NCBI GenBank assembly: GCA_023380305.1
Contig: JAMCQZ010000008.1
Span: forward strand, 5,588 to 69,587
Direction of reading: 5' to 3'
DNA: 64,000 bases
Source: Patescibacteria group bacterium
Lineage (GTDB): Bacteria; Patescibacteriota; Minisyncoccia; UBA6257; Colwellbacteraceae
Position 1 is the first letter of the stretch. Every line of letters starts with the position of its first letter. Of the stretch, positions 10,021 to 57,109 are shown one piece after another. The notes beneath the pieces are model-generated. The model ran no database searches and was not told where the DNA came from. It saw only the letters and a program-made list of their open reading frames with translations. The position numbers and the translations under genes are program-made.

Positions 10021-10056
10021 ATTTTAATTTTTTGTTTGCGACCTTTACCTTAAAGA

Positions 10057-12899: not shown

Positions 12900-12957
12900 T
12901 GCATAAAGTTTGTTAAGCGACCTTTATTGATTTAATTATAACATAAACCGGGAATGA

Positions 12958-14224: not shown

Positions 14225-14421
14225 TGATTGATTTTTATTGCGACCTTTGACGGCGCGAGCCGAAAATCGATCATAACATCGGGCAGTCGTAAAAATCGCG
14301 GCTCTATAATTTTATTATATCACAACGACAATCCGTTCCCGCGGTAATTCCGGTTCGCCGGAATGGCCGTAAACCGACGCCTGGCGGTAAACAGGCTTTT
14401 CAAGGCTCAACCGCTTAATAG

Positions 14422-20390: not shown

Positions 20391-20419
20391 TGAATAATTG
20401 GCAAGATTTTATGCGACCT

Positions 20420-40677: not shown

Positions 40678-40742
40678 TTTAACAAAAGGCTGATGACAAT
40701 TTTTAGCTATAATCCGATTGACCGTTGCTTTATACTGAATCC

Positions 40743-40970
40743 ATGGACAACCAAATATCATCTTCATTGGCGGAAACTCCCCTAAGGTCGGCGGCTAAGA
40801 CTATAAGCTACCGGTTGATTATCATCATTCTGGATTTTGCTTCGATTTACTTTTTTACCAGGAGCGTCGGTGTTGCCACTTCGTTTGTTATTGTCAGCAA
40901 CATTTACACCACCATCGCATATTACATCCACGAAAGGGCCTGGAATCGGATTGATTGGGGCAAAAAGTGA
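40743..40970 (+). CDS. DUF2061 membrane protein
   Basis: ...SYRLIIIILDFASIYFFT...AYYIHERAWNRIDWG matches DUF2061. Confidence 0.6.
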   Translation: MDNQISSSLAETPLRSAAKTISYRLIIIILDFASIYFFTRSVGVATSFVIVSNIYTTIAYYIHERAWNRIDWGKK

Positions 40971-43160: not shown

Positions 43161-43217
43161 ATTATATAATAATAACGGATCTATTGATTAAAGGTCGCAA
43201 ATAAAAAATATTTTAAA

Positions 43218-43456: not shown

Positions 43457-44350
43457 CTACGGTCGCCTAACGCTCGCCATTATGGCGGCGATCACCGAAT
43501 CCAGATCAAAGCTTGAACGCTCTTTAAGACATAAGGTCTTCTCGGGTTCGATATAGTTGTTGCATTGAGGATACCGCAAAGTAAAAGTCAAACTAATAGT
43601 CTGATCCCCTATCGCGGTCGAATAGACGTAAGTCGTGTATACCGAGCCGGCAGCACCTTCGCTCGTTGATTTGACGCAATAAAATTTAGAATTAATGATC
43701 TTCTCGATGACGCGCTCCGGCAGGCTGAAAATGCCGGGTGTTACGGCGCAAAAAAACGGTTGGTCGACGATAGTCAACTCCGGCGGCCACGACCGCAAAT
43801 CAATAAACTCGGCGCCTAAAGACACGGGATAATCGAAGACAAGTCCGGTGGTCCCGGCGACCGAAAGACTCTGCGGAATCGTCGTTTCATAAACTCCAAG
43901 ATCGCATCGGCTGATAAGCCAACGGTTATTTATTTTTTCGACGATCATTGTTACCGGGCGCTTGGTGGCGAATCCAATATTGACCGCGTCGCCGCTCGTC
44001 ACCTCGATAATCTTGCCCGCGACCTTATATGAATTGGCCGCGACCGGCTCCAGTGAAATTATTTCTATGTGGTCCGGCCAGGGGCTGGAGACGAGCCGAC
44101 CGGGAGCTTTCGCGGGATCGGTCAGCCACGCGTCAATCAATTGTTGCGTTACCAAGCCTTTATAGTTCTCCTTTATGCCCTCCGCCAAAACTTCCCGAGG
44201 AGCCAGCAAGGAGACATTTTTTAACCGATCGCCGAAAGTTTGCACGACCTCCAGAACTTTACGGGGGTCTTGTCTGGCCTCGGTTGTTAATTCCCAAACG
44301 CAAAATACGGTAATTATCAGAAAAATGATAAAAAGTATTTGCTTTCTCAT
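43457..44350 (-). CDS. Secreted/anchored hypothetical protein
   Basis: Signal anchor MRKQILFIIFLIITVFCVW. No recognisable domain. Confidence 0.55.
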   Translation of the reverse strand: MRKQILFIIFLIITVFCVWELTTEARQDPRKVLEVVQTFGDRLKNVSLLAPREVLAEGIKENYKGLVTQQLIDAWLTDPAKAPGRLVSSPWPDHIEIISLEPVAANSYKVAGKIIEVTSGDAVNIGFATKRPVTMIVEKINNRWLISRCDLGVYETTIPQSLSVAGTTGLVFDYPVSLGAEFIDLRSWPPELTIVDQPFFCAVTPGIFSLPERVIEKIINSKFYCVKSTSEGAAGSVYTTYVYSTAIGDQTISLTFTLRYPQCNNYIEPEKTLCLKERSSFDLDSVIAAIMASVRRP

Positions 44351-44394
44351 AAGATTACATTACCACAAAATCCTGTAGCTTGCTTCATTTGACG

Positions 44395-44425
44395 CATAAA
44401 AGAAAACCAGGCATAGCCTGGTTAA
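44395..44425 (-). terminator. Rho-independent terminator
   Basis: aaccaggc-ata-gcctggtt perfect hairpin; on the minus strand followed by TTTTCTTTTATG. Confidence 0.5.
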
Positions 44426-44435
44426 TCCATAAACA

Positions 44436-44774
44436 CTACCGAAGAATCACGTCGTATCCGAGGCGGCACGCTTCTCCGACTATCTTCTGCAGAAAGTCGT
44501 GGCGGTCGACCTCTTCGGCGGGATAAAGCCATAGTTCCTGGACATATCTTTTTCCGCGGATACGGCATTGGAGCCCGGAGAGTTTTGGAGAAAGCATCAG
44601 CTTGCGCTGACTATTGGCTGAAGGTGCCGAGGCGATATACGACGGCACAATTGCTTTGACTGATGGTTCGGTTCTTGCAAAGTCCACCAAACGGCACGCG
44701 GCGTCGATCAAGGTCGTGTGGCTTCCGCCGCACTTGCCACCCGACCGGTGCTGTTTTCTCGACAAACCGGTCAC
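44436..44774 (-). CDS. Hypothetical protein (doubtful)
   Basis: ORF with terminator downstream. Composition atypical. Could be shorter (from MLSPKLSGL) or non-coding. Confidence 0.3.
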   Translation of the reverse strand: MTGLSRKQHRSGGKCGGSHTTLIDAACRLVDFARTEPSVKAIVPSYIASAPSANSQRKLMLSPKLSGLQCRIRGKRYVQELWLYPAEEVDRHDFLQKIVGEACRLGYDVILR

Positions 44775-44831
44775 CTCCTTTATGGGGTTATCTACAATAT
44801 ACTCCCATCTCGGCCGTATGCCAAATGCCGT

Positions 44832-45560
44832 TTACGGTTCCAAAAAATCCGGACAAATCACCGTACATTCGCCCTCGAGACAAAGAGAAACAAACGGGCA
44901 AGGCGATTGGATCAGATATTCCGCGGGAGTTTTACAATCGATGTTTCTAACGCAAGATTGATCAAGCACTTTTTCTATGCTGTAAGCTTTGATCGAATAA
45001 TGGGGTGGCAGAATAATGCTCGTATCGCAATCGCCGGCCACGCAAACCTGGTTGGTTTCCAATCCATATCCGCCGACTGCGGGATCCTTAAATAAAAAAC
45101 TTTTCGGCGGATAAACCGTAAAATACATAAAAATGAAGATCGCGAATAAAATCATTATTTTTGACGCTGTCTCGCAGCTCTTCGGAAATGGCCGCATTTT
45201 TTGAACGACCGAAGCCATGATTTCGGCCGCAACGACGCTTACAATGAAAATCGCGATATCAAGGAATAGATAGTTTTTCCCCAAGACGGCCGTGTATCCA
45301 TAAAATAGAACAACTATAGCGAATGCGGCGAAATAAACCGCTTTGGCGCGGGACAACCAAAAATTGTTTGGCTTTTGCTTGCGCCGCCACCCCTGCCAGA
45401 AACTGATAAAAGCCATCGGCATCACTGCGAGTTTCAAATGTTCCCAAACGCTTTCGTCCACCGCGGAAAACAAGCCGACGATTAACGATTGGTGAAAAAA
45501 ATCGAATGTAAAATGAAGCAATGATCCGACAACGATGGTAAAAACGATATTAAATAACAT
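44832..45560 (-). CDS. Polytopic membrane protein with extracytoplasmic Cys-rich C-terminal domain
   Basis: Start trimmed to MLFNIVFTIVVGSLLHF. Five or six TM helices. The last 80 aa contain 10 Cys (CVAGDCDT...CVRNIDCKT...CPFVSLCLEGECTVICPDF). Confidence 0.55.
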   Translation of the reverse strand: MLFNIVFTIVVGSLLHFTFDFFHQSLIVGLFSAVDESVWEHLKLAVMPMAFISFWQGWRRKQKPNNFWLSRAKAVYFAAFAIVVLFYGYTAVLGKNYLFLDIAIFIVSVVAAEIMASVVQKMRPFPKSCETASKIMILFAIFIFMYFTVYPPKSFLFKDPAVGGYGLETNQVCVAGDCDTSIILPPHYSIKAYSIEKVLDQSCVRNIDCKTPAEYLIQSPCPFVSLCLEGECTVICPDFLEP

Positions 45561-45570
45561 CGCGAATCTT

Positions 45571-46809
45571 TTAAGATTTGCGCGTGCGCTTCGCCGAAGT
45601 TTTTCTTTCCTTAGTAGTTTTGGATTTTGGGGTCTCGTCGGCTTTCGGTTGGGATTTAACAGATGATTTGCCCGGTTCGCCGCCCTCTCTAACAACCACT
45701 CCTATTTTTCCTTCTGGGAAAGCGTAAAGCCCGGGGACGGCGTCATCTCCGCTCAAAACAATGAGATTTAGTTTGGCTTGGTCCAATTTCGGGAGACACT
45801 CCGATAAAGTCGATCCTTTAACGATCGGGCCCCGGAAATTGTCGACCGTTACTGGCACGACGCCGTCCGAACCGAAGATGTCGGCGTAACACTTAAGCAC
45901 CCCGACGCAAGCGTCGTTCAATGCGCAGCCCGCGCACTGCTCAGGCTTTACTTTGGGGATAATCTCATCTTCGTCCTTTAAAGTATTCAATCGGCCGCTG
46001 GTAGCCGTCCCGATATAGCGCCTTTGCCACTCGATCAACGGCCTTACCGATACGTCTTCTATCCCCGAAAGAACGCAAAGAGGCACCGGCGCTCCGGCGG
46101 CGGTTACCGCCCTGATGCCAGCGGCCAGAAGGATCTTCAAGGCTTCCTGCAGATAAGGAGCGATATCGCTGAATTTGACGTAGATAGAGTCCTTGTTGAT
46201 CTCGGCGTTGCCGAAAAGAAGCGGGTAACCGAAAGATACGCCGTCTATCCCCGGGAATTCATGAATAATAAATTTTGCGTATTCCGGCAGATAACGATAA
46301 TTTTGTTCGATTATAATGATCGCTACATCGACATTCCGGTCGCTTTGAATGGCATATTTCATGGCTGCGCAGGTTTTTTCAAAGTCCCCTTTCTGACCGC
46401 GGGTGATACTCTCCGCTAACTCTGCGTTAGGGCCGTGAAGAGAAAAAGAAAAAGAAATCTTTTTTTTCGGATCAACCGCGATAACGGCGTCAAAAAAATC
46501 TTTATCTCCCAATCGAACGCCATTCGTCATTATGTTTAAAGAGCTCACCCTAGGGTCTTCAAGCGTCTTTCCGATGATTTCCACGAAGTCCGGATGGATG
46601 GTAGACTCCCCTCCCGTGAGAAGTAAAAATTTTCCTCCTTGGTCAAGATAACCGTTGATAATCTCCCGGGCCTCTTTGGCGTTCAACCTTGGGTAAGCTT
46701 CTTTGCCGTCGGCGGCCAGGCAGAAAACACAATTTTGGTTGCAAAAAGCTCCCAAATTGATGCTTACCATCGAACCCTCGTCGCCCTTCTTCTCTTCGGA
46801 AATTTTCAT
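45571..46809 (-). CDS. Radical SAM enzyme with C-terminal SPASM/twitch-like Cys cluster
   Basis: CNQNCVFC (Cx3Cx2C) near the N-terminus. GGE motif LLTGGEST. C-terminal CAGCALNDACVGVLKC auxiliary cluster motif. Lys/Thr-rich basic tail. Confidence 0.8.
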   Translation of the reverse strand: MKISEEKKGDEGSMVSINLGAFCNQNCVFCLAADGKEAYPRLNAKEAREIINGYLDQGGKFLLLTGGESTIHPDFVEIIGKTLEDPRVSSLNIMTNGVRLGDKDFFDAVIAVDPKKKISFSFSLHGPNAELAESITRGQKGDFEKTCAAMKYAIQSDRNVDVAIIIIEQNYRYLPEYAKFIIHEFPGIDGVSFGYPLLFGNAEINKDSIYVKFSDIAPYLQEALKILLAAGIRAVTAAGAPVPLCVLSGIEDVSVRPLIEWQRRYIGTATSGRLNTLKDEDEIIPKVKPEQCAGCALNDACVGVLKCYADIFGSDGVVPVTVDNFRGPIVKGSTLSECLPKLDQAKLNLIVLSGDDAVPGLYAFPEGKIGVVVREGGEPGKSSVKSQPKADETPKSKTTKERKTSAKRTRKS

Positions 46810-46852
46810 AAGTCTTTCTAATTATAACTCCGGCGGCAAAACTGCCAAATTT

Positions 46853-48345
46853 TCATGCCACCAGAAGCCCGATCACGGCCACAATCAGCAGATAAATCAG
46901 GCACGGGACAATCACCCCTCTCAATACCCCTCTTTCCTGATTTTTTAGCCCAACCACGGCTTCAGCGGCCAAAATGTCGGCGAGAGCGGTCATATTCCCG
47001 GCGGCGGCGCCGACAAGCGCCAAAGCCAAGATTTTAAACGCGCCCAATCCGATCGCCAGGCTCGCGATATTCAAAAAATTTCCGAACATCAGATTGGAGA
47101 TCGTGGCGCTTCCGGTGAGAAAACATCCGAAAGCGCCGATAAAGGGAGCCAAAAAGGCAAGGCCCTTGTTTCGAAACTTCCGGCGATGAGGTTGGTCGCC
47201 GAAGGCAACCCGCTCGAGTTCAAACCGGAGTTAATCATCAGCTGAACAACCACCGAAATGGAAGCGATGACCAGAAACGGGCCGAGAGCGTCCTTGAGGG
47301 ATTTTTTGATTGCCTCGCCGGCGATCCGGTGCCTGCGGGAACCCCAAACAATGGCGATCGGCAGGCCGGCGGCGAGAAAAGCGAATCCGGGGTTGAATAA
47401 AGAGAATTTGTGGCCCAGGGCGAAAGGAATACTGAAGCTCGCCGGACCGATCAAAAGCTTTCCCAGAATCAGTAAGACGATAAGCAGTCCGTAGGGAAAG
47501 ACCAATTTGAAATAAGACTGTTTTTCCGCCGGCAGTCCGACCGCGGCTCCTCGGCGGATGTTTTTCGGAACCAACAAACCCAGTTTGGTCGTCAAAAGCA
47601 CGAGTGCAAGGCCGATGAGAGAACCGATGATCGAAGGAAATTCCTGGCCGAGCGGCACGACCAAGGCCGAAGGAATGACAAAAGCGAGGCCCGACCAGAC
47701 AGCGAAGGGCAAGGCTTCTTTTATTTGTTTCGCTCTATCCGCTTTTCCGGCGGTGATGGCCAAAAGCATAAAAACGGGGACGATAATACCGACGCAGTTT
47801 ATCCAGGACGCGAACTGGGGAACGGCGGCGTAATCAAGGCCGGCAAAACCCACCCGGATCGGCGCTCCGGCGGCGCCGAAAACCACCGAAGTGCTGTTCC
47901 CCAAAAGCGAAACAATGACCGCTTGAAGCGGAGCAAAACCCAGTCCCACAAGCAGGGGCGCGACAATAGCCGAAGCCGTCCCGAATCCGGCCGTGCCTTC
48001 GAGAAAGTTTTCGAAAAACCAAGCAAGGATAATCACCTGGATCCGGTAATCTTTGGAAAATGATTCGAGGTACCGGGAAATGTTTTCAATCACCTTGAGG
48101 TCTTTCAGTACTTCCAGGAAGAAGATGGCGCCGAGGATGATAAAAAAGATATCAAGAGCCACAAAAAATCCTTTGGCGAAAGACGCAAAGAAGAGACCGG
48201 GTAATATCCGCCAATAAAGAACGGAGAGCCCGGCCATCAAAACCAAGGTCCAGGAAGAAACCTTGAGAAGAGGCAGTTTCCTCCAAAGGAGCAGAACGAG
48301 AAAAAGAACGAACGGGCTGATCGATAAAGCGAAGGCGAGATTCAT
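46853..48345 (-). pseudogene. lctP: L-lactate permease (LctP family) interrupted by a single-base frameshift in an A5/T5 homopolymer (about 47151-47155)
   Basis: ORF 47089..48465 (N-terminal and middle part) and ORF 46853..47152 (C-terminal part, ...FIGAFGCFLTGSATISNLMFG...) are both LctP-like in adjacent frames. Adding one base in the T5 run would restore a contiguous reading frame. Confidence 0.7.
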
Positions 48346-48400
48346 TGATTTTATTATACCAAGAAAAAAACAGGCTCCTCGAAAAAAGAGCCCGTAAAAC

Positions 48401-48724
48401 TTAGCCGGCGGTCGCGCCAAGAGGCTTGGGAGCAAGTTCGCCCGCTCCCAAAAGGCCGGCGACATAGATTACGATGCCGCAGGCGAAAACCCGGTTTCCG
48501 GCGTCAGTCTTCAGCTTGAAAGAATTGTCTTTGGGATTCAGGCTGATTTCCACCGAAAACTTGGCCTTCTCCGGGACGGGGCGACGATCTTCACCCCTTC
48601 CCGTCTGGTCGCTGACAAAATCGGCCAGCATCTTTTGCAGGACTTCCGGCGTTGCGTTCGTAAAGACCTCGACCTTGTCCGGATGACCGCAATCGAAAAC
48701 GATCTTCGCGACGAGGATAGCCAT
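48401..48724 (-). CDS. Conserved small protein, paralog 1 of a 3-member family (about 107 aa, C-terminus ...GELAPKPLGATAG)
   Basis: MAILVAKIVFDCGHPDKVEVFTNATPE... Shares alignable sequence, leader and terminator with 48914..49249 and 52337..52660. Confidence 0.6.
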   Translation of the reverse strand: MAILVAKIVFDCGHPDKVEVFTNATPEVLQKMLADFVSDQTGRGEDRRPVPEKAKFSVEISLNPKDNSFKLKTDAGNRVFACGIVIYVAGLLGAGELAPKPLGATAG

Positions 48725-48800
48725 TGCGAGCCCTCCTTTTTGGACTTGGATCAGCCATAAACTGACATATTTGGCTGGAAAAGTCAAAGGGATTAAATAA
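48725..48800 (-). promoter_or_regulatory. Conserved 5' leader/promoter region of paralog 1
   Basis: Minus strand: TTGACTTTTCCAGCCAAATATGTCAGTTTATGGCTGATCCAAGTCCAAAAAGGAGGGCTCGCAATG. Contains TTGACT (a -35-like element) and GGAGGG RBS. Near-identical copies precede the other two paralogs. Confidence 0.45.
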
Positions 48801-48913
48801 AATACGAAGCTATGATGATTGCAATTAGGCAGCCGCCGAAATCAAAACGATGGCTAAAACCGGTCGACCGATAGAATAAAAACAGGCTCCTTAGGGAAGA
48901 GCCTGTAAAACAA

Positions 48914-49249
48914 TTAGCCGGCGGTTGCGCCAAGAGGCTGGGGAGCGAGCTCGCCTGATGTCAAAAAGCAGAAAGCATCGCCCAAGATGATACAGTCCAC
49001 GGTCCTATTTCCGGTATTGCTCTTCATCTCGGAAGAATTGTCTTTAAGACTCCTCCTGAGATTCACCGTGAACATAACATCTGTGTCGACGGGACTGTGA
49101 TCTGATCCTTCCTCTTCCTGCTTCTTCACCAGGGGCCGCAAAGCATCAGCCACGAGTTCCTTCAAGGCCTCCAACGTTCCATTGGTAAAGACAGCGATCC
49201 CGTCCGGCCTGGCAGCAAAGAACACTATCGTCGCAACGGAACCATCCAT
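48914..49249 (-). CDS. Conserved small protein, paralog 2 (C-terminus ...GELAPQPLGATAG)
   Basis: MDGSVATIVFFAARPDGIAVFTNGTLEALKELVADAL...; same leader and a similar terminator to paralog 1. Confidence 0.6.
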   Translation of the reverse strand: MDGSVATIVFFAARPDGIAVFTNGTLEALKELVADALRPLVKKQEEEGSDHSPVDTDVMFTVNLRRSLKDNSSEMKSNTGNRTVDCIILGDAFCFLTSGELAPQPLGATAG

Positions 49250-49322
49250 TGCAAGCCCTCCCTTTTTGGACTTGGATCAGCCATAAACTGACATATTTGG
49301 CCGGAAAAGTCAAGAAGACTGA
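49250..49322 (-). promoter_or_regulatory. Conserved 5' leader/promoter region of paralog 2
   Basis: Plus strand ccattgcaagccctccctttttggacttggatcagccataaactgacatatttggccggaaaagtcaag, nearly identical to 48721-48790. Confidence 0.45.
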
Positions 49323-49334
49323 CCGGACGCGAAG

Positions 49335-49973
49335 CTAACGGCAAGCGCAGATCTTGTAGGGGCCTCCGGCCGTGATATTATCCATCTGCACGAAAACCGT
49401 GTCGCTCGGGCAGTCGCATTTGGCAGGAACGGGCAAAGCGCTGACTGTCGGGCCTTCCGGCTGGCGGGAATGGCAAGGCAGACCCCACTCCGCCGAGGTC
49501 TGGCGGCAAACAGCCGATCCCCCACCGAAATTGAAGTTTCCCCAACTCATCTTCGGAAACTTGATATAGCCGCTCTGGACCAGAAAAAGAAACGCGATGA
49601 TGGCAAAAAGAAAAATCATGGGTAAAAGCGGATCCGGCCGGTAGGATTTTTTTCTTCCGCCCGACGCTCCGCCGGAAACTATTTCTCCTCCGGTTTTTTC
49701 TTCAAAATCTCTTTTTCCGCCGTCTTCCTCCACCCCGCCGAAAACGACATAAAGTATTCCCCGGGAAAACAAAGCGAGAAAAACATAATAAAGGATGGCC
49801 GCGACGACCATAAAGGCGATGGTCTCCGGCCGGAGATCGGAAGCCGGCTCACAGCTGATCATCTTTTTCTGCAAAAGCATCCAAAGAATGATCGCGAGCG
49901 GCAGCAGGAGAAGAACGACCTTCCCCAGACGGAAATACCACTTCCGCTCCAAAGACGATCTCTTGATAGGCAT
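49335..49973 (-). CDS. Membrane protein with Gly-rich loop and Cys-rich C-terminal domain (hypothetical)
   Basis: Three TM helices. C-terminal CRQTSAEWGLPCHSRQ...AKCDCPSDT...YKICAC. Confidence 0.5.
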   Translation of the reverse strand: MPIKRSSLERKWYFRLGKVVLLLLPLAIILWMLLQKKMISCEPASDLRPETIAFMVVAAILYYVFLALFSRGILYVVFGGVEEDGGKRDFEEKTGGEIVSGGASGGRKKSYRPDPLLPMIFLFAIIAFLFLVQSGYIKFPKMSWGNFNFGGGSAVCRQTSAEWGLPCHSRQPEGPTVSALPVPAKCDCPSDTVFVQMDNITAGGPYKICACR

Positions 49974-50055
49974 GGTTTGATTAATTATAGCAAGAAGGAT
50001 AAAAAAAGCGACGCCGGACGATTCTCTTCATTTCAAAACGCCGGGCAACAACCAT

Positions 50056-52131
50056 TTAAATTTTTTCCCGACGCAGAAGCGCCGCGTTGAAAGCCACGAT
50101 GATGGTGCTCAAAGACATGAACACGGCTGACAAGGCCGGGTCGAGAATCACTCCTCTCGAAACCAACACGCCGGCAGCCAAGGGCAGAGCGACAACATTG
50201 TATCCGGTCGCCCAGAAAAGGTTTTGGATCATCTTGTTATAGGTCAGCCGGGATAAATGGATGATCTTCACGATATCCCTCGGATCGTTCCTGACGAGGA
50301 TTATTCCGGCCGATTCGATGGCCACGTTTGTTCCGGCGCCGATGGCGATACCGAGATCCGCCTGGGTCAGAGCCGGCGCGTCATTGATCCCGTCGCCGAC
50401 CATCGCCACTTTAAGGCCGCGGTTCTGCAATTCTTTGACTTTTTCCGATTTTTGATCGGGTAGGACCCGGGCGAAATATTCATCGATGCCGAGCTCCGCA
50501 GCCACCCATTTTGCCACGTCTTCGGAATCACCGGTGATCATCGCCGACTGAACGCCCATTTCCTTGAGCGCGCCGACGGCCTGCCGCGATTCTTCCCGAA
50601 TAATATCCGCAAGAGCCATCGCGCCCAAAAACGCCCCGTCTTTGATCGCAAAAACAACGGTTTGGCCTTTTTCACCCGCGTCCTTGATTCGTCCGGAAAG
50701 GTTACCGGGAAGATCGACGCCGGCGCTCTCCAAAAGCGCCTGGCCGCCGACCATGACTTCCTTTCTATCGATAAAGGCTTTTACGCCCCGACCCTTCAAA
50801 GTTTCAAGTTTTTCCGGCTCCTGGAGCCGAAGCCTCCGCGACTTCGCTTCAGAGACAATAGCTTTAGAGACAGGATGCCCGGAAAAAGCGTCGAGGGAAG
50901 CGGCAGACTGCAAGACTTCGTCTTCCGTATGATTGTCCGCGGCCCAGACACTAACGACCCCGAATTCGCCCTTGGTCAGCGTCCCTGTTTTATCGAAAAG
51001 CACTATATCAATAGTCCGGCCGGCTTCGAGGGCCAGCCTCTGTTTCACCAAAAATCCGTTCTGCGCCGCCTTGGTCGTCGAAATGGAGGCAACCAAAGGC
51101 ACGGCCAAACCCAGGGCGTGCGGGCAGGCGATAACCAAAACAGCCACCAACCTGGCTACGGCAAATTCAACCTTGGCGCCGGCCGCGATCCAGGCTATAA
51201 GCGTTATAACGCCGCCTGCCACGGCGATGACCGTAAGATAAAAGGCGGCGCGGTCGGAGAGCACCTGCAACCGGGATTTCGAGCTTTGGGCTTCGGCGAC
51301 CAGGCGCATGACCCCGGCCAAAAATGTTTTTTCGCCGATATTGGTAACCCTGATCTTCAAAGCGCCGTCGCCGTTAATCGTTCCGGCGATAACCTGGTCG
51401 CCCGGGTTCTTATAAACCGGATTCGATTCGCCGGTAACCATAGACTCATTGACAGCCGATTCCCCTTCCATGACGGCGCCGTCGGCCGGAATCTTGGCGC
51501 CGGGTCTCACAAGCAAAATGTCGTTTTCCTTGAGTTCGGCAAGCGGAACCGTTTCGATCTTGCCGTTCCGGATCGTCTCCGCGGTATCGGGAAGCAGTTT
51601 TGAAAGCTCTTTGAGCGCGCCCTGGGCGACCGAGACCGCGCGCATCTCGAGCCAATGACCGAGAAGCATGACGGTGATCAAGGTCGTCAATTCCCAAAAC
51701 AGGGCGTCCGCGCCGGCAAAGACCGCATAAAGGCTCCAAAGATACGCCGCCGAGATGGCGATGCCGATAAGCGTCATCATGCCAGGAAGCCTGCTTTTTA
51801 TTTCCCTCCAGGCTCCGACCAGAAAAATCCAGCCGCCGTAGAAAAAGACTATCGAGCCGAGCGCGAGCGGGATATACGCCGACCCGTAGAATCCGGGCGG
51901 AGACCATTTAAAAATCTTTCCGATAATATCCGAATATAAAACGACCGGGACGGTAAGGACGAGGCTGACCCAGAATTTCCGGAAAAGCGTTTCCGCGCTG
52001 TGGTCGGCGTGCTTGTTCTCCGCGGCTTTTGCCGCTTCTCCGTGGCCCTGATGATCATGATGATCGTGCGTTTTCATAAATGAACTAATATGCGATGATC
52101 GCGATGTTTTTATATTATCAAAAAATCGCAC
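50056..52131 (-). CDS. copB: Heavy-metal translocating P1B-type ATPase (CopB-like: CPH motif and His-rich N-terminus)
   Basis: N-terminal MKTHDHHDHQGHGEAAKAAENKHADH; TM6 CPH (VIACPHALGLAVPL); DKTGTLT; GDGINDAPAL. Substrate (Cu2+/Cu+) is inferred from the motif class only. Confidence 0.85.
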   Translation of the reverse strand: MRFFDNIKTSRSSHISSFMKTHDHHDHQGHGEAAKAAENKHADHSAETLFRKFWVSLVLTVPVVLYSDIIGKIFKWSPPGFYGSAYIPLALGSIVFFYGGWIFLVGAWREIKSRLPGMMTLIGIAISAAYLWSLYAVFAGADALFWELTTLITVMLLGHWLEMRAVSVAQGALKELSKLLPDTAETIRNGKIETVPLAELKENDILLVRPGAKIPADGAVMEGESAVNESMVTGESNPVYKNPGDQVIAGTINGDGALKIRVTNIGEKTFLAGVMRLVAEAQSSKSRLQVLSDRAAFYLTVIAVAGGVITLIAWIAAGAKVEFAVARLVAVLVIACPHALGLAVPLVASISTTKAAQNGFLVKQRLALEAGRTIDIVLFDKTGTLTKGEFGVVSVWAADNHTEDEVLQSAASLDAFSGHPVSKAIVSEAKSRRLRLQEPEKLETLKGRGVKAFIDRKEVMVGGQALLESAGVDLPGNLSGRIKDAGEKGQTVVFAIKDGAFLGAMALADIIREESRQAVGALKEMGVQSAMITGDSEDVAKWVAAELGIDEYFARVLPDQKSEKVKELQNRGLKVAMVGDGINDAPALTQADLGIAIGAGTNVAIESAGIILVRNDPRDIVKIIHLSRLTYNKMIQNLFWATGYNVVALPLAAGVLVSRGVILDPALSAVFMSLSTIIVAFNAALLRREKI

Positions 52132-52299
52132 TGACGGCGATTGAAATAGTTCCTCGCCGCGCCGCCGCCATCTTGATGCGCAAAAAGACGATAAGGAGCC
52201 TCGAAATCAAATCTCTCTGCGGGGAAATCGTCTCCGGACAACAAAAATAGATTGTGGAAATGAAAATGATCTTGAAAGGCTTGAGATAATTTGATTGTT

Positions 52300-52330
52300 T
52301 GAAAAATAAAAGCTCTCCGAAGAGAGCTTA
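52300..52330 (-). terminator. Rho-independent terminator after paralog 3
   Basis: agctctc-cgaa-gagagct hairpin; on the minus strand followed by TTTTATTTTTC. Confidence 0.5.
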
Positions 52331-52336
52331 AGGGGG

Positions 52337-52660
52337 TCAGGCCTTAGCCTTGCCAAGCGGCTGGGGTTTGATCGCGCCGGAATCAATCAGGTCGATCACT
52401 TGGGCGATGATGCCGCAGGTTAGACCCTTGTTGCCGGTGTCGGTTTTGGTCTGGAAAATATCTTCTGAAAGATCCAGACTGACCTCCACCGAAAAATGGT
52501 TCTTTTCCGCGGCCGGGTTCTTGTCCTCGCCGGTCCCCATCTGGCTTCGAAGATACTCGGTTAGCATGTCGGTCAAGGCCTCGTCTTTGGCGTTCGTAAA
52601 GACCTGCGTTTGGTCCTGATGCTCGCAATCAAAAGAGATTCTGGCGATCAGGATAGCCAT
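52337..52660 (-). CDS. Conserved small protein, paralog 3 (C-terminus ...GAIKPQPLGKAKA)
   Basis: MAILIARISFDCEHQDQTQVFTNAKDEALTDML... aligns along full length with paralog 1. Confidence 0.6.
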   Translation of the reverse strand: MAILIARISFDCEHQDQTQVFTNAKDEALTDMLTEYLRSQMGTGEDKNPAAEKNHFSVEVSLDLSEDIFQTKTDTGNKGLTCGIIAQVIDLIDSGAIKPQPLGKAKA

Positions 52661-52740
52661 CGCGACCCCTCCCTGATTGGACTTGGATCAGCCCCAAACT
52701 GACATATTTAGCTGGAAAAGTCAAAACAACCCTAGACTGC
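52661..52740 (-). promoter_or_regulatory. Conserved 5' leader/promoter region of paralog 3
   Basis: Minus strand TTGACTTTTCCAGCTAAATATGTCAGTTTGGGGCTGATCCAAGTCCAATCAGGGAGGGGTCGCGATG. Same element as upstream of paralogs 1 and 2, with a few substitutions. Confidence 0.45.
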
Positions 52741-53002
52741 TCGCCGGCGCCATTACCATCCTGAAATAACACCCGGAACCTCACATCGTCGCTTTGCTCC
52801 TCTCTCACACCTCTCGGTTTGTCCGACAACTGCCGGATCCGTTGCGGGGAACAATCAAGTTCCCCGACCCCCTCCTATACTCAGCCGGGATTAGAGCTAA
52901 TAAAAATACCCGTTACAAGAGTATTTTTAGGTAATTATCCCTCGATTTCAAGTAGTGTATTTGTTATCATACAGATGCCACTAGTTTAATAGAAAAAACG
53001 CC

Positions 53003-53700
53003 ATGAAGTACACAATCGACGATTTCAAAAAGGAGTTTACTACGGATCAGGATTGCATGAACTACATCATTCGTACTCGATACATGGAAAAGAAGCTATA
53101 CCCGATCAAGGGGCGTCCTTCTGTTTATGCTCAAGCTGGCAGGAATGCCAAGCAGGTGTCGCCTTTGGCAGGTACAATTTTTAATAAGAGCGATACTCCG
53201 CTTCACCTATGGTTCTATGCGATCTTCCTCTTGACTACTTCTAAGAATGGCGTGTCCGCGAAGGAGCTTCAAAGACATCTTGGCGTTACCTACAAGTGTG
53301 CGTGGAGGATTACTCACCGGATAAGGAGAGGTCTCATAGATAAAGGTATCTCACTCTTTGGTACAGTCAAGGTCGATGAAACGTACATTGGAGGCGAATA
53401 AGAAAGCTATAAAAAAGGTCAAAAATAATAACCAACGAATTTCCCGCATACAATAAGGTGTTAAAAAGCGGCTATAGCCACAAGAAAATCAGGCACGCTA
53501 TCAAAGAGTACGTTCGTTAAAAGGTGCACAGGAATACAATTGAGGGATTTCGGAGTCAGTTGAAGCGTTCAATCAACGGGACTTACCATGCAGTTTCTCT
53601 AAAGCATTTATAGGCTTACGTTGATGAGTTTTCTTGGAGGTATAACCGCCGTCACTCGGAGAAACCTTTGTTTGCTTTGGCTCTCGCAAGGGTTGCACGA
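53003..53700 (+). mobile_element. Decayed IS1595-family (ISXO2-like) transposase gene remnant
   Basis: N-terminal ORF ...AGTIFNKSDTPLHLWFYAIFLLTTSKNGVSAKELQRHLGVTYKCAWRITHRIRRGL...KVDETYIGGE matches the IS1595 transposase N-region, but the zinc-ribbon cysteines are lost and most of the DDE core is absent. C-terminal remnants (GYSHKKIRHAIKEYVR*, VHRNTIEGFRSQLKRSINGTYHAVSLKHL*, AYVDEFSWRYNRRHSEKPL) lie in different frames separated by stop codons. Confidence 0.65.
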
Positions 53701-53760
53701 GCTTAGATAGAATTTTATGAAATTGTTTTCGTGTAGTCATGTTATACTGTTTTTTCCAAA

Positions 53761-56256
53761 CTATTTTTCGATGGCCATAATCTCTTTCTGAGCTTCCCAT
53801 TTCTTCATGAACGCTTGTCCAATCTTCGTTTTTATTTTTTCGCGCTCCTTAGAGTTTCTTGCCACTGGCAAAAGTATTTCTTCCCAGCGATTCCCTATAT
53901 TGGGAAGCGTTGTATCTATCATAATTTTGTTATAGAGCTGTTGTTTCGTTAGATGATGGGAGAATAAGTAAAGCAGATAAAAAGCGTCTATGCCATATTT
54001 ATTTTCTTCATTTATAACTCGGAATATGAGACTATGATGGTTCAAAAGTATGCCGGTGTCGGTAGGCGAAAGTAATGCCACATCACCGATCCTATAACTT
54101 CCTTCTTTGACGAATACAATATCTTTTACTTTCAGTTCAACGCCATTGCCTTTTACGCTCTCATACACTTCGCGCGGCACCATAGCAGTCGGATTCTTGT
54201 ATACCTCCCAATCAATAATATCCGCCGCACGGACATAAGGAATTTCACCCCTCCCTTTGAATTCGCTTGGTGGTGCACCATGTCCACGGAATTTCTTTAT
54301 GATTCCTTGATCGATTAAGTCTTTTACCGATACAAATTCCAGCCCCAATTTCTTTGCTTCTTCATACAGTCCCTCAATTTTTTTCTGCCAATAATATCTG
54401 GGAACATAAATGTTGTCTTTTACGTTTGAAATATCTACAGAAAACACACACTTATTCTTAAGGCTAGAAACGTCGTCTAATTCATTCCGAATTACTATAG
54501 TGTCGTCCCATATCTCATCGGTAAATCTACAACTTTTCTCATCATATCGGTACATCTTCTCTCCTCTGTGATCATGGCCCATTTCCTCTGCCACAGCCAT
54601 GATTATCGGGTTTTGTTGTGGTTTCCCTTTTTCAAGGATTAGTAAAACAGTCTTGGCATTACAATGGGGACGAAAGGTATTATGAGGGAGGTCAATTACA
54701 GCTTTTATATTGTTATCTTTTTTAAGGTATTCAAGAATATATTTCGTGCTGGGAGCATGGAAATAAGTCTCGGGCAATACGATAGCAAGTTTGCCGCCGT
54801 CGTTGAGCATTTCCAAACACCGCTCAATAAAAAGCTCCTGTATGGCTGTATCTTTAGCTTGGTCTGTCTTAATATACACGCCATCTTTTTCTATCCATTT
54901 ATGGCCAAGGTCAAAATGCTGCGCATCTTCTTTAAAGATTTTTGTTTTACTGCCAAAGGGGGGGTTGGTGAGGATTACGTCGAATTTTTTGAATTTATCA
55001 TCCTCTACGAATAAATCTTTAGCTTTCCCTTCAAATTCTTCTGCTGTATGGAGAGAATTCTGCTGTGCGATACCGCTCTGCCCATCCCCCATGATCACCA
55101 TGTAAGCTTTGGCGATTTTTACCAGATCGATTTCTTTATCTAAGCCGAAGAAGTTTTTTTGAGCGATCTCTTTTTTAAGCGCATCAAGATTCGGAGCACC
55201 TTTATATTTCTTACTTTTGTCCATCACAAGCCAGATATGCTCTAGGGCATGGATAAGAAAACCGCCGCTACCACAAGCCGGATCGAATATGGTCTGGCCT
55301 GGTTGTGGATCGATTATTTTTATAGCCGTTTTGACTACCTCCCGTGGCGTGAAGAATTCTCCTTTTTCTCCGACAAGTTTACTTTCGGCGAATACCTCAA
55401 AGGCGTCTCCTACCGTATCTTTATCAGTTTTAAGTAAACTATATTTCTCTAGCTCACCCACTACGCGAGTGATTGATTTATCATCAAGTTTTATCTCTTC
55501 TTCTTTATCGAAAATTCCATCTCCCACGAGTTCGCTCTTAACCTGATCAAAGAGCGTCTTGACACGCTTGCTTACTTCCCTCGGATTTTCATTGAAACCG
55601 ATGCGGAATTTCGGTAGGGCATCCTGCTCATACCTCTCATCCCATATTTTGCAGAAAATAAGACGTATCATCTCATTCCCAAGCTTCTCACGTCGACTGA
55701 TATTCGTGTTTGAATATAAGGTATTGAGCAATCGCCGAAAAGTGAGCTTAAGGTTGCTCGCCGGAGATAACTTATTCTTGGCAATACGCCCTATATCCTC
55801 AAAGGTCTCTCCATTCTTGGGAATTTGAAAGACAAAATTAGTCTTCACCTCTCCGCTTATCGGATCACGATATAGGTATTCTATATCCGATCCATTAGTC
55901 CACACGCCCCATAGAGCGGACGAGGCAGACATATAGCTTGCAAGCTGTTTGACGCCCTCCTTCTTCGTTGGTCGTTTCGTCTCAACTATGCCTAAAATGT
56001 CTCGGCTCTGCTCACGCTTTTCTTTGTTAGAAGTCTTGTATACAACAATATCAGCACGCTCTTTATTCTTGGCAGAGCTTATCTCCCCGCGTTGGATATA
56101 AACTTCAATATCCATCCGCGCATAATCGTAATCATAGTCATTGAAAAGTACCTCCTCATATTCTTGTCTGACTCTCTCTTCTGGTTTTCTTATGTCTACT
56201 AGCCTGCCAGTTGCTTTATCTTTGATGCAGTCGTCTTTAAGAGTTTCGATCCTCAT
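53761..56256 (-). CDS. Single-polypeptide restriction-modification-type enzyme: N-terminal PD-(D/E)xK (HsdR_N-like) nuclease domain + gamma-class N6-adenine DNA methyltransferase + C-terminal target-recognition region (Type IIG-like)
   Basis: N-terminus RVRQEYEEVLF...ERADIVVY...GIVETKRP (D...ExK). MTase motif I FDPACGSGGFL and motif IV LTNPPFG. About 300 aa C-terminal TRD-like region. No hsdS or hsdR partner nearby. Confidence 0.55.
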   Translation of the reverse strand: MRIETLKDDCIKDKATGRLVDIRKPEERVRQEYEEVLFNDYDYDYARMDIEVYIQRGEISSAKNKERADIVVYKTSNKEKREQSRDILGIVETKRPTKKEGVKQLASYMSASSALWGVWTNGSDIEYLYRDPISGEVKTNFVFQIPKNGETFEDIGRIAKNKLSPASNLKLTFRRLLNTLYSNTNISRREKLGNEMIRLIFCKIWDERYEQDALPKFRIGFNENPREVSKRVKTLFDQVKSELVGDGIFDKEEEIKLDDKSITRVVGELEKYSLLKTDKDTVGDAFEVFAESKLVGEKGEFFTPREVVKTAIKIIDPQPGQTIFDPACGSGGFLIHALEHIWLVMDKSKKYKGAPNLDALKKEIAQKNFFGLDKEIDLVKIAKAYMVIMGDGQSGIAQQNSLHTAEEFEGKAKDLFVEDDKFKKFDVILTNPPFGSKTKIFKEDAQHFDLGHKWIEKDGVYIKTDQAKDTAIQELFIERCLEMLNDGGKLAIVLPETYFHAPSTKYILEYLKKDNNIKAVIDLPHNTFRPHCNAKTVLLILEKGKPQQNPIIMAVAEEMGHDHRGEKMYRYDEKSCRFTDEIWDDTIVIRNELDDVSSLKNKCVFSVDISNVKDNIYVPRYYWQKKIEGLYEEAKKLGLEFVSVKDLIDQGIIKKFRGHGAPPSEFKGRGEIPYVRAADIIDWEVYKNPTAMVPREVYESVKGNGVELKVKDIVFVKEGSYRIGDVALLSPTDTGILLNHHSLIFRVINEENKYGIDAFYLLYLFSHHLTKQQLYNKIMIDTTLPNIGNRWEEILLPVARNSKEREKIKTKIGQAFMKKWEAQKEIMAIEK

Positions 56257-56340
56257 ACTACAATTATCGCACGTAAATCACTATTCCTCCTACTTAAGTT
56301 TTCAACACTTGAAATGAGGGGATACTCACCATTTTTTATT

Positions 56341-56358
56341 GCTCCGACACCTGGAATC
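56341..56358. repeat. Direct repeat of tRNA-Asn 3' end (17 of 18 nt identical to 56792..56809)
   Basis: gctccgacacctggaatc versus tRNA gctccgacacctggattc. att-like duplicate bounding the GIY-YIG #1 segment. Confidence 0.6.
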
Positions 56359-56408
56359 TCACTGCTCGCCAGCGCCACTTTCGTCTTGAAAATGCCTGGA
56401 ATCAAACA

Positions 56409-56660
56409 TTAATTATTCAGATAATTTCTTAATTGTTTGTTAATATATTTTCGGCCGGATCCTCCTTTTAAAAACTTTTCTCTACCTATGGCGTCGCTCT
56501 TATTAAGATACCCCTCAAAATATATCAATCTATATGTTTTTCCTCGAGTGGTCTTAGTGTCTCCAGATTTATGACCTTTAAGCCGTTTTTTGAGATCAGC
56601 CGTAAAACCAATATACAATCCCCTGGTTTCTGTATTTTCAAGGACGTAGACAAAATACAT
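56409..56660 (-). CDS. GIY-YIG nuclease family protein (minimal, 83 aa)
   Basis: YFVYVLENTETRGLYIGFTADLKKRLKGHKSG...REKFLKG, a GIY...YIG module with conserved Arg and Glu. Confidence 0.7.
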   Translation of the reverse strand: MYFVYVLENTETRGLYIGFTADLKKRLKGHKSGDTKTTRGKTYRLIYFEGYLNKSDAIGREKFLKGGSGRKYINKQLRNYLNN

Positions 56661-56789
56661 AATTCAAGTGTCGCGCAAAATAAATTGCTTCGCAACTTAT
56701 CGCCCGACCACGAAATGTGGCTTAGTTACTACGATTGCCTGCGCCACGAGATATTAAAATACCCCCTGGGGGTATTTTAATATTTTTCG

Positions 56790-56864
56790 TGGCTCCGACA
56801 CCTGGATTCGAACCAGGAACCCGCTCCTTAACAGGGAGACGCTCTACCGTTGAGCTATGTCGGA
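56790..56864 (-). tRNA. tRNA-Asn (anticodon GTT), 75 nt including encoded CCA
   Basis: Minus strand TCCGACATAGCTCAACGGTAGAGCGTCTCCCTGTTAAGGAGCGGGTTCCTGGTTCGAATCCAGGTGTCGGAGCCA. 7-bp acceptor stem, D arm GCTC/GAGC, anticodon loop CTGTTAA, T arm CCTGG-TTCGAAT-CCAGG. Confidence 0.85.
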
Positions 56865-57109
56865 ATATGCTGTTTAATGAACTCCCGACCTCTAAAGCTT
56901 TTTAGCTGCTTTTCTCTTTTAAGAGCATCTGCTCTATTCATACATTCCTCTTGATATATTAATACCCATTCACCACTATATCTAGCAGTATAACTTTTAT
57001 CGAAGATCTTATTATTATGCAACTTTAATCTCCCTATTAAATCACTTGTCTGTCCTATATAGATTTTCTTATGATTCTTGTTAAAGATTGCGTAAACGAT
57101 GTAATTCAT
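56855..57109 (-). CDS. GIY-YIG nuclease family protein (minimal, 84 aa)
   Basis: NYIVYAIFNKNHKKIYIGQTSDLIGRLKLHNN...REKQLKSFRG. Its stop codon overlaps the 5' end of the tRNA by 10 nt. Confidence 0.7.
   Translation of the reverse strand: MNYIVYAIFNKNHKKIYIGQTSDLIGRLKLHNNKIFDKSYTARYSGEWVLIYQEECMNRADALKREKQLKSFRGREFIKQHIPT

Follow-up and report, generated by a model that had tools for sequence, protein, structure and literature searches.

Three paralogous genes and their shared leader

We analysed a stretch of 64,000 nucleotides (nt) from a Patescibacteria metagenome-assembled genome (GCA_023380305.1, contig JAMCQZ010000008.1, positions 5,588 to 69,587), hereafter referred to as the window, with a focus on three paralogous genes on its minus strand and on the near-identical leader that precedes each of them. 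The paralogs are named A, B and C in order of coordinate, and comparison loci from other genomes or contigs are given L-numbers. A (48401..48724, M1586_01000) encodes a protein of 107 amino acids (aa) that is the same as the NCBI hypothetical protein P0001. B (48914..49249, M1586_01005) encodes 111 aa and is the most diverged copy, and C (52337..52660, M1586_01025) encodes 107 aa and has an ortholog, P0004, in a related organism. All three are annotated as hypothetical proteins. A first-pass annotation, made from the DNA letters alone, had described three alignable paralogs arranged around a CopB-type ATPase, each with its own leader and terminator, and we recovered this arrangement. The three open reading frames (ORFs) lie on the minus strand at the coordinates above and their proteins align over their full length, with identities to A of 45% (B) and 47% (C) and 27 invariant columns, which removes the concern that the similarity might not extend beyond chance.

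Intrinsic terminators on the minus strand follow each gene. The terminator of A (48370..48395) consists of an 11-bp stem followed by a T run and that of B (48882..48906) is nearly the same, but C is followed by a different hairpin, AAGCTCTCTTCGGAGAGCTT (52310..52329), which is conserved in contig L001 of a close relative. The suggestion that the downstream terminators are similar therefore holds only in part: there is a hairpin after every gene, but the acaggctc...gagcctgt hairpin is common to A and B. These two genes also have their last 15 aligned codons in common (82% nucleotide identity, compared to 58% mid-gene). As C has another terminator and lacks this 3' tract, the idea that the genes were duplicated as uniform complete cassettes was not supported.

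The leaders are 63 to 64 nt long and are located on the minus strand at 48725..48787 (A), 49250..49313 (B) and 52661..52724 (C). The window contains a 48-nt core (TTGACTTTTCCRGCYAAATATGTCAGTTTRKGGCTGATCCAAGTCCAA) exactly three times, always on the minus strand (48740-48787, 49266-49313 and 52677-52724); the copies have zero, one and three mismatches to A, respectively, and 0 of 100 shuffled sequences gave a match. Shorter pieces of the leader were found at the same three places only. All copies stand at an equal distance from a GGAGG Shine-Dalgarno (SD) sequence and the ATG, with GGAGG located 6-8 nt before the ATG. In a mafft alignment the paralog leaders are 84-92% identical (54-59 of 64 positions). 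Identity is only 14-33% in the 63 nt upstream of TTGACT and 39-58% at third codon positions (Fisher p from 1e-4 to 1.5e-9 for the leader against these comparison regions). DNA alignment of the whole units gives the same profile (90-100% in the leader, 10-30% just upstream of TTGACT and ~50-60% in the coding region), and the similarity ends abruptly 1-2 nt upstream of TTGACT. The near-identical upstream element reported in the first-pass annotation is thus present at every copy, in the same register to the SD sequence and ATG. The leader of B begins 22 nt after the stop codon of an upstream gene for a Cys-rich membrane protein, and no terminator-like site was found between the two.

The leader contains a 48-nt imperfect palindrome, with CAGCCA-N14-TGGCTG inside (48752-48777 in the leader of A) and TTGACTT/AAGTCCAA as outer arms. 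CAGCCA-N14-TGGCTG is unique in the window (0.01 expected) and no other CAGCCA-N-TGGCTG sites were found there. A 2-mismatch leader match upstream of a radical S-adenosylmethionine (SAM) gene (46839-46852) was rejected as unrelated sequence beside a TTATAAT. The leader of C also occurs upstream of its ortholog in L001 and L002. No further copy is present in the window, and exact scans of public collections returned no matches or matches explicable by chance: none in the GTDB representative genomes, one in the JGI metagenomes (discarded as a chance match within an unrelated ORF), and in IMG/VR none for the central and right part of the leader and nine at chance level for a 17-mer. A scan of IMG/VR with the left half of the leader gave one match, to a promoter-like site that is described below. 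Homologs of the paralogs in other genomes have different promoters in their upstream regions and do not share the leader. From these comparisons the leader element is specific to the lineage of the window organism and its close relative.

A family of small acidic proteins

Word-indexed searches reached only A, B, C and P0004. A profile built from these four sequences was used for an exhaustive HMMER search, which recovered 275 clusters at E <= 1e-3, including 57 at E <= 1e-10, nearly all of them 90-140 aa in length. The family is characterised by the motifs TNAK-E, Q-G-G-D, LDLSDD-F and SDTGNKGLT-GI, and its nearly invariant residues (A numbering) are N23, G42, G44, D46, D67, G76, N77, L80, G83 and I84. 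A, B and C are all members according to the family hidden Markov model (HMM; E = 1.8e-27, 1.6e-20 and 1.4e-37, respectively); B lacks G83 and keeps the other nearly invariant residues. The family is acidic, with a median isoelectric point (pI) of 4.8. No Cys or His is conserved across it. The Cys-x-His of A and C, which the first-pass annotation had singled out as a CGH/CEH site, is absent from P0004 and from B, which has FFAAR, and is not a feature of the wider family. The C-terminal PxPLG tail noted at the same time survives in a looser form, with hydrophobic-x-hydrophobic-x-P/x-L-S/G as the family-wide motif.

Searches against known families were negative, in line with the earlier failure to assign the proteins to one. 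Scans of the paralogs and of representative and distant homologs against Pfam, NCBIfam, PHROGs and PADLOC returned no significant match, a precomputed Pfam domain was present in 0 of 59 homologs, and profiles made from 4 and from 62 family sequences had no match among the PDB sequences. A fold search against PDB and BFVD likewise found no significant relative. AlphaFold2 (AF2) predicted a beta-beta-alpha-beta-beta-alpha order with a predicted local distance difference test (pLDDT) score of 84, using either 4 or 62 sequences. We regard the family as one of small (~100 aa), acidic, soluble alpha/beta proteins that has not been described before. In the predicted structure, conserved Gly, Asp, Asn and Thr residues are located in loops and at the N-termini of both helices. 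Together with the acidity of the family, its length of ~100 aa and its presence in both cells and phages, this placement leads us to favour a small protein that would bind a ligand or a partner protein, and makes an enzyme, a DNA binder or a metal binder seem less likely. As the family is common to cells and phages, a role in phage-host conflict is possible.

To establish where the family occurs among cellular genomes, GTDB representative genomes were scanned with the motif [ST][DN]TGNKGLT and nine loci were confirmed. Eight of these belong to the Candidate Phyla Radiation (CPR), namely three Saccharibacteria and one each of Harrisonbacteria, Yanofskybacteria, Paceibacterota, Parcubacteria and a Patescibacteria single-cell genome, and one belongs to Nanoarchaeota. 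Their contexts are chromosomal and varied, and include phosphoglycerate kinase, CtpA protease, LigT and formyltransferase genes, BipA with a pyridoxal phosphate (PLP) enzyme, and a CCA-adding enzyme. A type I HsdR, integrase, IS200 transposase or STAND NTPase gene is nearby at some of the loci. A second clade (HDCGNKGLRDGI) is found in phage-like contigs with dense, co-oriented small ORFs and almost no Pfam matches. Neighbours there include a MazG-like pyrophosphohydrolase (phrog_4856), a nucleotidyltransferase-like protein (phrog_1614), deoxycytidine monophosphate (dCMP) deaminase and HNH genes, and one such locus is near nicotinate phosphoribosyltransferase (NAPRTase), nicotinamide adenine dinucleotide (NAD) synthase and an Acb2_Tad1_hairpin protein. 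The family is also present in IMG/VR contigs of 54-248 kb, and tblastn against GenBank phages found no homolog. Applied to six-frame ORFs, the family HMM detected one copy per locus (including L023-L031) and three only in the window. By sequence, A, B and C fall in the cellular CPR clade. We found no conserved partner gene: in L005 and L021 the homolog is followed by a 113-aa gene, but these two genes are not related.

As a separate observation, the ~130 nt upstream of the family gene are nearly identical between L023 and L026 (labelled Harrisonbacteria and Saccharibacteria) and between L024 and L025 (labelled Saccharibacteria and Yanofskybacteria) despite their different CPR class labels, and gene order is the same in L023 and L026 as well. 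The genomes may be mislabelled or closely related, or they may have a mobile segment in common.

Interpretation of the conserved leader

The interpretation that we favour, and that we consider about equally likely to be right or wrong, is that A, B and C are independently transcribed and co-regulated, with a shared promoter that overlaps a palindromic operator and has been kept by selection. We infer promoter and operator function from the layout of the leader. The conserved 63-64-nt element would constitute the promoter and 5' untranslated region (5'UTR) of each independent transcription unit, with, in order, a -35 hexamer TTGACT (48782-48787 in the leader of A), a 17-nt spacer, a TG-extended degenerate -10 TGTCAGTTT (proposed at 48759-48767), ~30 nt of 5'UTR and the GGAGG (GGAGGG at 48731-48736). 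The palindrome around the -10 would be the operator for a putative dimeric regulator, and the three genes would switch together as a small regulon. TTGACT matches the -35 consensus at five of six positions, TG is present 1 nt before the -10 hexamer, and the proposed hexamer CAGTTT, preceded by TG-T, keeps A2 and T6 of TATAAT.

The surroundings of C also bear on the position of the promoter. In the window, no TGnTATAAT was found upstream of C on its strand and C faces a divergent insertion sequence (IS) fragment, and in L001 the C ortholog follows a tRNA gene and a hairpin with a T run; on these grounds the promoter would be expected inside the conserved element. Other genes of the genome have TGnTATAAT, often 6-10 nt before the ATG and located by the extended -10 alone, which implies leaderless mRNAs without an SD sequence. 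The genes for the Cys-rich membrane protein and lactate permease are examples of this pattern, to which A, B and C, with a -35 hexamer and a GGAGG-bearing 5'UTR, are exceptions. Minus-strand TGnTATAAT sites were recorded at ~49992, 48361, 42138, 38231, 36626, 31808, 31360 and 2996, among others. A literature search on leaderless transcription or promoters in CPR bacteria found nothing usable. Among the orthologs from other CPR genomes, those of L024 and L025 have TGATATTAT, then a 5'UTR with an SD sequence. The match to the left half of the leader mentioned above is located in the viral contig IMGVR_UViG_3300031998_000850 (L034 118-146, minus strand), where TTGACTTTTCCCGCAAAATATGTTAAAAT is intergenic; it has the leader's -35 and spacer, and a canonical extended -10, TGTTAAAAT, takes the place of TGTCAGTTT.

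Several observations weigh against a promoter with an overlapping operator. The -10 hexamer matches TATAAT at only two of six positions and a consensus promoter scan called nothing there. The viral site may be a chance match, since we estimate that ~0.1-0.2 such matches are expected; whether related promoter or coincidence, it lends weak support for this reason. No gene for a regulator or transcription factor was found among the ~20 neighbouring ORFs scanned. The most invariant stretch of the leader, AAATATGTCAGTTT, is the centre of the palindrome and not its arms, a pattern to be expected of an RNA loop or a core promoter more than of a classical operator. The antisense strand has a better extended -10 (TGACATATT), so that the sense direction of transcription is a predicted one. 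Lastly, three one-sided changes in the palindrome (A-U to G-U twice and C-G to U-G once) preserve pairing on the sense strand only, and this retention of G-U pairs appears to favour an RNA mildly.

The main rival to the promoter and operator is a cis-regulatory RNA, which we regard as improbable and which has to be judged from four nearly identical sequences. Transcripts would begin upstream or, for B, arise by read-through from the ATPase/Cys-rich operon. A protein, possibly the encoded one, or a ligand would bind the 48-nt imperfect hairpin, of which the 14-nt loop AAAUAUGUCAGUUU is invariant, and so control translation or stability at the GGAGG close by. RNAalifold predicts a consensus hairpin of 14 pairs from the four copies, in which the loop is invariant and the stems are variable, and the fold z-scores are -3.2 for A and -1.9 for B. 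The lack of a detectable terminator-like site ahead of B agrees with read-through, and A, B and C use an SD-bearing 5'UTR in a genome in which many genes are apparently leaderless. Against this, C and L001 have a broken pair (A-U to A-G) and z-scores of only -0.4 and -0.3, and with flanking sequence the three copies take different minimum-energy folds (z-scores of -1.0 to -0.1). Conservation begins at the -35-like hexamer, and no conserved or canonical promoter is present upstream of A or C from which such an RNA could start. The acidity of the proteins (pI ~4.6 in B and C) argues against nucleic acid binding. The leader has no match in Rfam, even at E values up to 10: a scan of the window at the gathering threshold returned the tRNA only, and a permissive scan of 48300-52900 returned one sub-threshold PhotoRC-I match, which lies on the terminator of C. 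The first-pass annotation had proposed a functional RNA or promoter element under selection and suggested covariation as evidence. No compensatory double change was detected in the hairpin across the four copies, so the RNA half of that proposal is left with neither an Rfam match nor a compensatory pair and with z-scores ranging from -3.2 to -0.3.

How the leaders have stayed alike depends on the age of the copies. Between paralogs, codons for identical residues are the same in only 50-63% of cases (mid-gene). Between C and its L001 ortholog, 11 of 68 identical-residue codons differ in the mid region and the 48-nt core differs at two positions. Third codon positions that are only 39-58% identical beside leaders that are 84-92% identical exclude a recent duplication and, as far as sequence divergence can tell, make the paralogs old. 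Given an old duplication and a conserved leader, the leader is maintained by selection or gene conversion. Under the promoter and operator interpretation, purifying selection would keep the leader near-identical and gene conversion would probably contribute between the tandem copies A and B. The earlier choice between a very recent duplication and an element under selection can thus be narrowed: the former is discarded, and the randomised synonymous sites and sharp leader boundary favour the latter.

It is also conceivable that the leader is an ordinary promoter that was homogenised by repeated gene conversion or unequal recombination and has no special function, but we think this rather unlikely. 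The tandem pair A and B does form a mosaic of the expected kind, with 59-61 of 64 leader positions in common, 82% nucleotide identity over the last 15 aligned codons and 80-90% in the terminator, around a middle of 58% identity, and the upstream edge of leader identity is abrupt. C, on the other hand, is 3 kb distant, is without the A/B 3' tract and shares the leader alone, so conversion would need to have been restricted to the same 64 nt in every pair. The ortholog in another organism (L001) retains the leader with fewer changes than its synonymous sites, and the block carrying A and B was apparently inserted later, yet already bore the same leader.

Copper-related neighbours and history of the locus

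The ATPase between the paralogs (50056..52077, minus strand) is a copper-translocating P1B ATPase of the CopB type (TIGR01511, 582.6 bits compared to a cut-off of 397). Its translation has E1-E2_ATPase and Hydrolase domains, a CPH motif (VIACPHALGLAVP) and a His-rich N-terminus (HDHHDHQGH), in agreement with the earlier identification of a CopB-type neighbour. The Cys-rich membrane protein (49335..49973, minus strand) has 212 aa, belongs to no known family and has its own TGCTATAAT promoter at ~49992. On the plus strand, 52146..52250 is what is left of the C-terminal third of a CopM/DUF305 gene (60% identity over 35 residues); at the DNA level the similarity continues to ~52300.

The close relative, represented by three contigs (L001-L003), has only the C ortholog (P0004), with the same leader. 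The samples SRR10252151 and SRR10267473 contain the window organism, and SRR12486999 contains the relative. In L001, tRNA-Asn precedes the C ortholog, after which come DUF305 (opposite strand), genes for lactate permease and a radical SAM protein, and others, DUF6512 among them. In the window, tRNA-Asn is followed by genes for a GIY-YIG protein and a MADS2-like methylase, an IS1595 fragment, C, the DUF305 remnant, the copper ATPase, the Cys-rich gene, B, A, a split lactate permease, radical SAM and DUF6512. This comparison indicates that DUF305 received, beside an ancestral C, an insertion of ~3.9 kb that comprises the ATPase and Cys-rich genes together with B and A. The boundaries of the block are not at the leaders. 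The adjacency of paralogs and ATPase is a historical, lineage-specific insertion: the ATPase is a neighbour, and on sequence a functional link to the paralogs is not shown. The link implied by the first-pass annotation is not supported by L001, in which C stands alone beside an intact DUF305/CopM gene.

A copper-related role for the paralogs therefore deserves separate consideration. In this scenario they would assist the CopB ATPase in copper handling, as a chaperone, sensor or sponge, and the leader would be an operator that responds to copper, which we judge very unlikely. It is true that C adjoins a copper gene in both lineages, the CopB-type ATPase in the window and CopM/DUF305 in L001. 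The L001 DUF305 protein matches the CopM metallochaperone domain, below the cut-off, and CopM is a copper-binding protein (PMC4335983). A and C also have Cys-x-His, but the family has no conserved Cys or His and the motif is missing from B and the L001 ortholog. No heavy-metal-associated (HMA), DUF305 or other metal-binding domain was matched in the paralogs, and copper genes are absent from the nine loci in CPR bacteria and DPANN archaea and from ~15 further bacterial and phage-like loci. The region upstream of the ATPase is different and has no copy of the leader. Judged by their sequences, the paralog proteins are not metal binders. The ATPase has its own palindrome, GCGAT-G-ATCGC (52092-52102; region 52085-52125), between a -10-like TGATAATAT and its ATG, which is a candidate operator of the ATPase and unrelated to the leader of the paralogs.

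A small mobile or recombinogenic repeat, such as a miniature inverted-repeat transposable element (MITE) or a repetitive extragenic palindromic (REP)-like palindrome, an integron attC-like site or a recombinase target, is highly improbable as an explanation of the leader. The leader is a 48-nt imperfect palindrome, and its region has been rearranged in comparison with L001 and has a tRNA gene, an IS1595 fragment and a restriction-modification methylase nearby. Nevertheless, only three copies are present in 64 kb, each in register with the SD sequence and ATG of a paralog, and the scans of GTDB, JGI metagenomes and IMG/VR gave no matches or matches explicable by chance. Indels relative to L001 have their boundaries away from the leader, and inspection of the leader revealed no attC R'/R'' core sites (GTTRRRY / RYYYAAC). 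That the leader is coding, as an N-terminal extension or upstream ORF from the TTG of TTGACT (MTFPAKYVSLWLIQVQ..., peptide MTFPAKYVSLW), is barely credible: the frame is open in all copies and in A is in frame with the gene (a 128-aa ORF), and three of four core substitutions are at third codon positions and synonymous in that frame (~0.11 by chance), but a 1-nt indel breaks the frame to the main ORF in B and C, no ribosome-binding site precedes the TTG in contrast to the strong GGAGG before the conserved ATG, and in other genomes the homologs begin where that ATG lies.

Several other features of the window were recorded. The ~4 kb between C and tRNA-Asn (52740-56790) contain an IS1595 transposase fragment (53003-53401), an 831-aa MADS2-like N6 methyltransferase (53761-56256) and a GIY-YIG gene (56409-56660), with a second GIY-YIG gene past the tRNA-Asn (56855-57109). 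This stretch is probably an inserted island, because the tRNA is only ~200 nt from the C ortholog in L001. A possible degraded 3' copy of tRNA-Asn near 52830-52870, considered as a boundary of the island, showed only weak similarity. On the other side of the paralogs, the L-lactate permease (46853-48465, minus strand) is split into overlapping ORFs at 47089-48465 and 46853-47152, both matching PF02652. The gene is intact in L001 (498 aa), and the split is a frameshift, a pseudogene or an assembly error. Next to it, 43457-46809 on the minus strand contains a radical SAM gene (45571-46809; the HxsC maturase model is the best match but is below its cut-off), a DUF6512 membrane protein (44832-45695) and a 297-aa protein of no family (43457-44350). 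The same three gene types occur together in L001 (2847-5748) in a different order, and the group could be a small cluster for peptide modification or for a cofactor.

A second P-type ATPase, of type II, is located 10 kb away (38245-40767, minus strand). Its best match is the PMR1-type calcium pump model, below the cut-off, and its neighbours are small genes, DUF3175, DUF488, TspO and a metallo-beta-lactamase fold protein. Finally, a 9-mer, AAAGGTCGC, occurs five times in the window compared to 1.1 expected, at 10038-10046, 12917-12925, 14240-14248 and 20413-20421 on the minus strand and at 43190-43198 on the plus strand. The four minus-strand copies are in untranslated regions, 15-30 nt before start codons.

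Significance and comparison with known systems

Patescibacteria and DPANN genomes are small, and much of their gene content has no known function; orphan families are numerous in these phyla. The paralogs define one compact conserved family that, in these searches, is confined to ultra-small organisms and large uncultivated phages. The family folds confidently in silico without a structural relative having been found, and it has been triplicated in one lineage under a near-identical control region. This offers a handle on the family: the 64-nt element could serve as bait or reporter to find the regulator and its signal, and three natural variants are available for comparison. The analysis also corrects the tempting inference that these genes are copper-resistance accessories, finds no known RNA element at the leader and records an apparent leaderless TGnTATAAT pattern for the genome. 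With many genes following that pattern, those with a -35 hexamer and an SD-bearing 5'UTR stand out.

A more speculative proposal, which we consider doubtful, is that the family represents a new fold and functional class shared by CPR/DPANN episymbionts and large phages and equipped with a dedicated palindromic switch. Such proteins could be sponges for a nucleotide or signalling molecule, or inhibitors in phage-host or symbiont-host conflict. The three copies would be variants with conserved ends and a variable middle, and the leader would be a new family-specific regulatory element, either an operator or an RNA under the control of a protein or ligand. Our family is comparable to small phage accessory and anti-defence proteins such as the sponges of the Acb2/Tad1/Tad2 type in that its members are ~100 aa long, acidic and encoded in accessory or nucleotide-metabolism regions of large phages, and its conserved Gly/Asp/Asn loops at helix N-termini invite the same comparison. 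It resembles them in neither sequence nor fold (no match in PHROGs, Pfam or BFVD) and, by contrast, it is also chromosomal and single-copy among CPR/DPANN housekeeping genes. With regard to structure, the predicted beta-beta-alpha-beta-beta-alpha order resembles that of ERH/DCoH-like two-layer alpha/beta sandwiches (~100 aa), and ERH chains were among the top structure matches, which were non-significant.

The arrangement of the leader can be compared with two groups of control regions. In copper operons controlled by MerR/CueR, CsoR or CopY, as at this locus, a copper P1B ATPase adjoins and a palindrome lies over the putative promoter. MerR-type promoters have a 19-20-nt spacer containing the dyad, and the cop box of CopY systems is TACAnnTGTA. 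The spacer of the leader is 17 nt, the ATPase itself is without the element, and the cop box is absent from the leader. We rejected a MerR-type layout, as a 19-nt spacer gives a hexamer that is not conserved (GTTTAT for A and B, GTTTGG for C and L001), and the dyad CAGCCA/TGGCTG reaches beyond the spacer. The second group is that of sigma-70 extended -10 promoters with an overlapping operator, with which the proposed layout of the leader has in common a -35 matching at five of six positions, a 17-nt spacer, the TG and an SD-bearing 5'UTR, and from which it differs by its CAGTTT hexamer, which keeps only A2 and T6. As in sigma-70 promoters with a palindromic repressor operator, an inverted repeat brackets the putative -10 of the leader.

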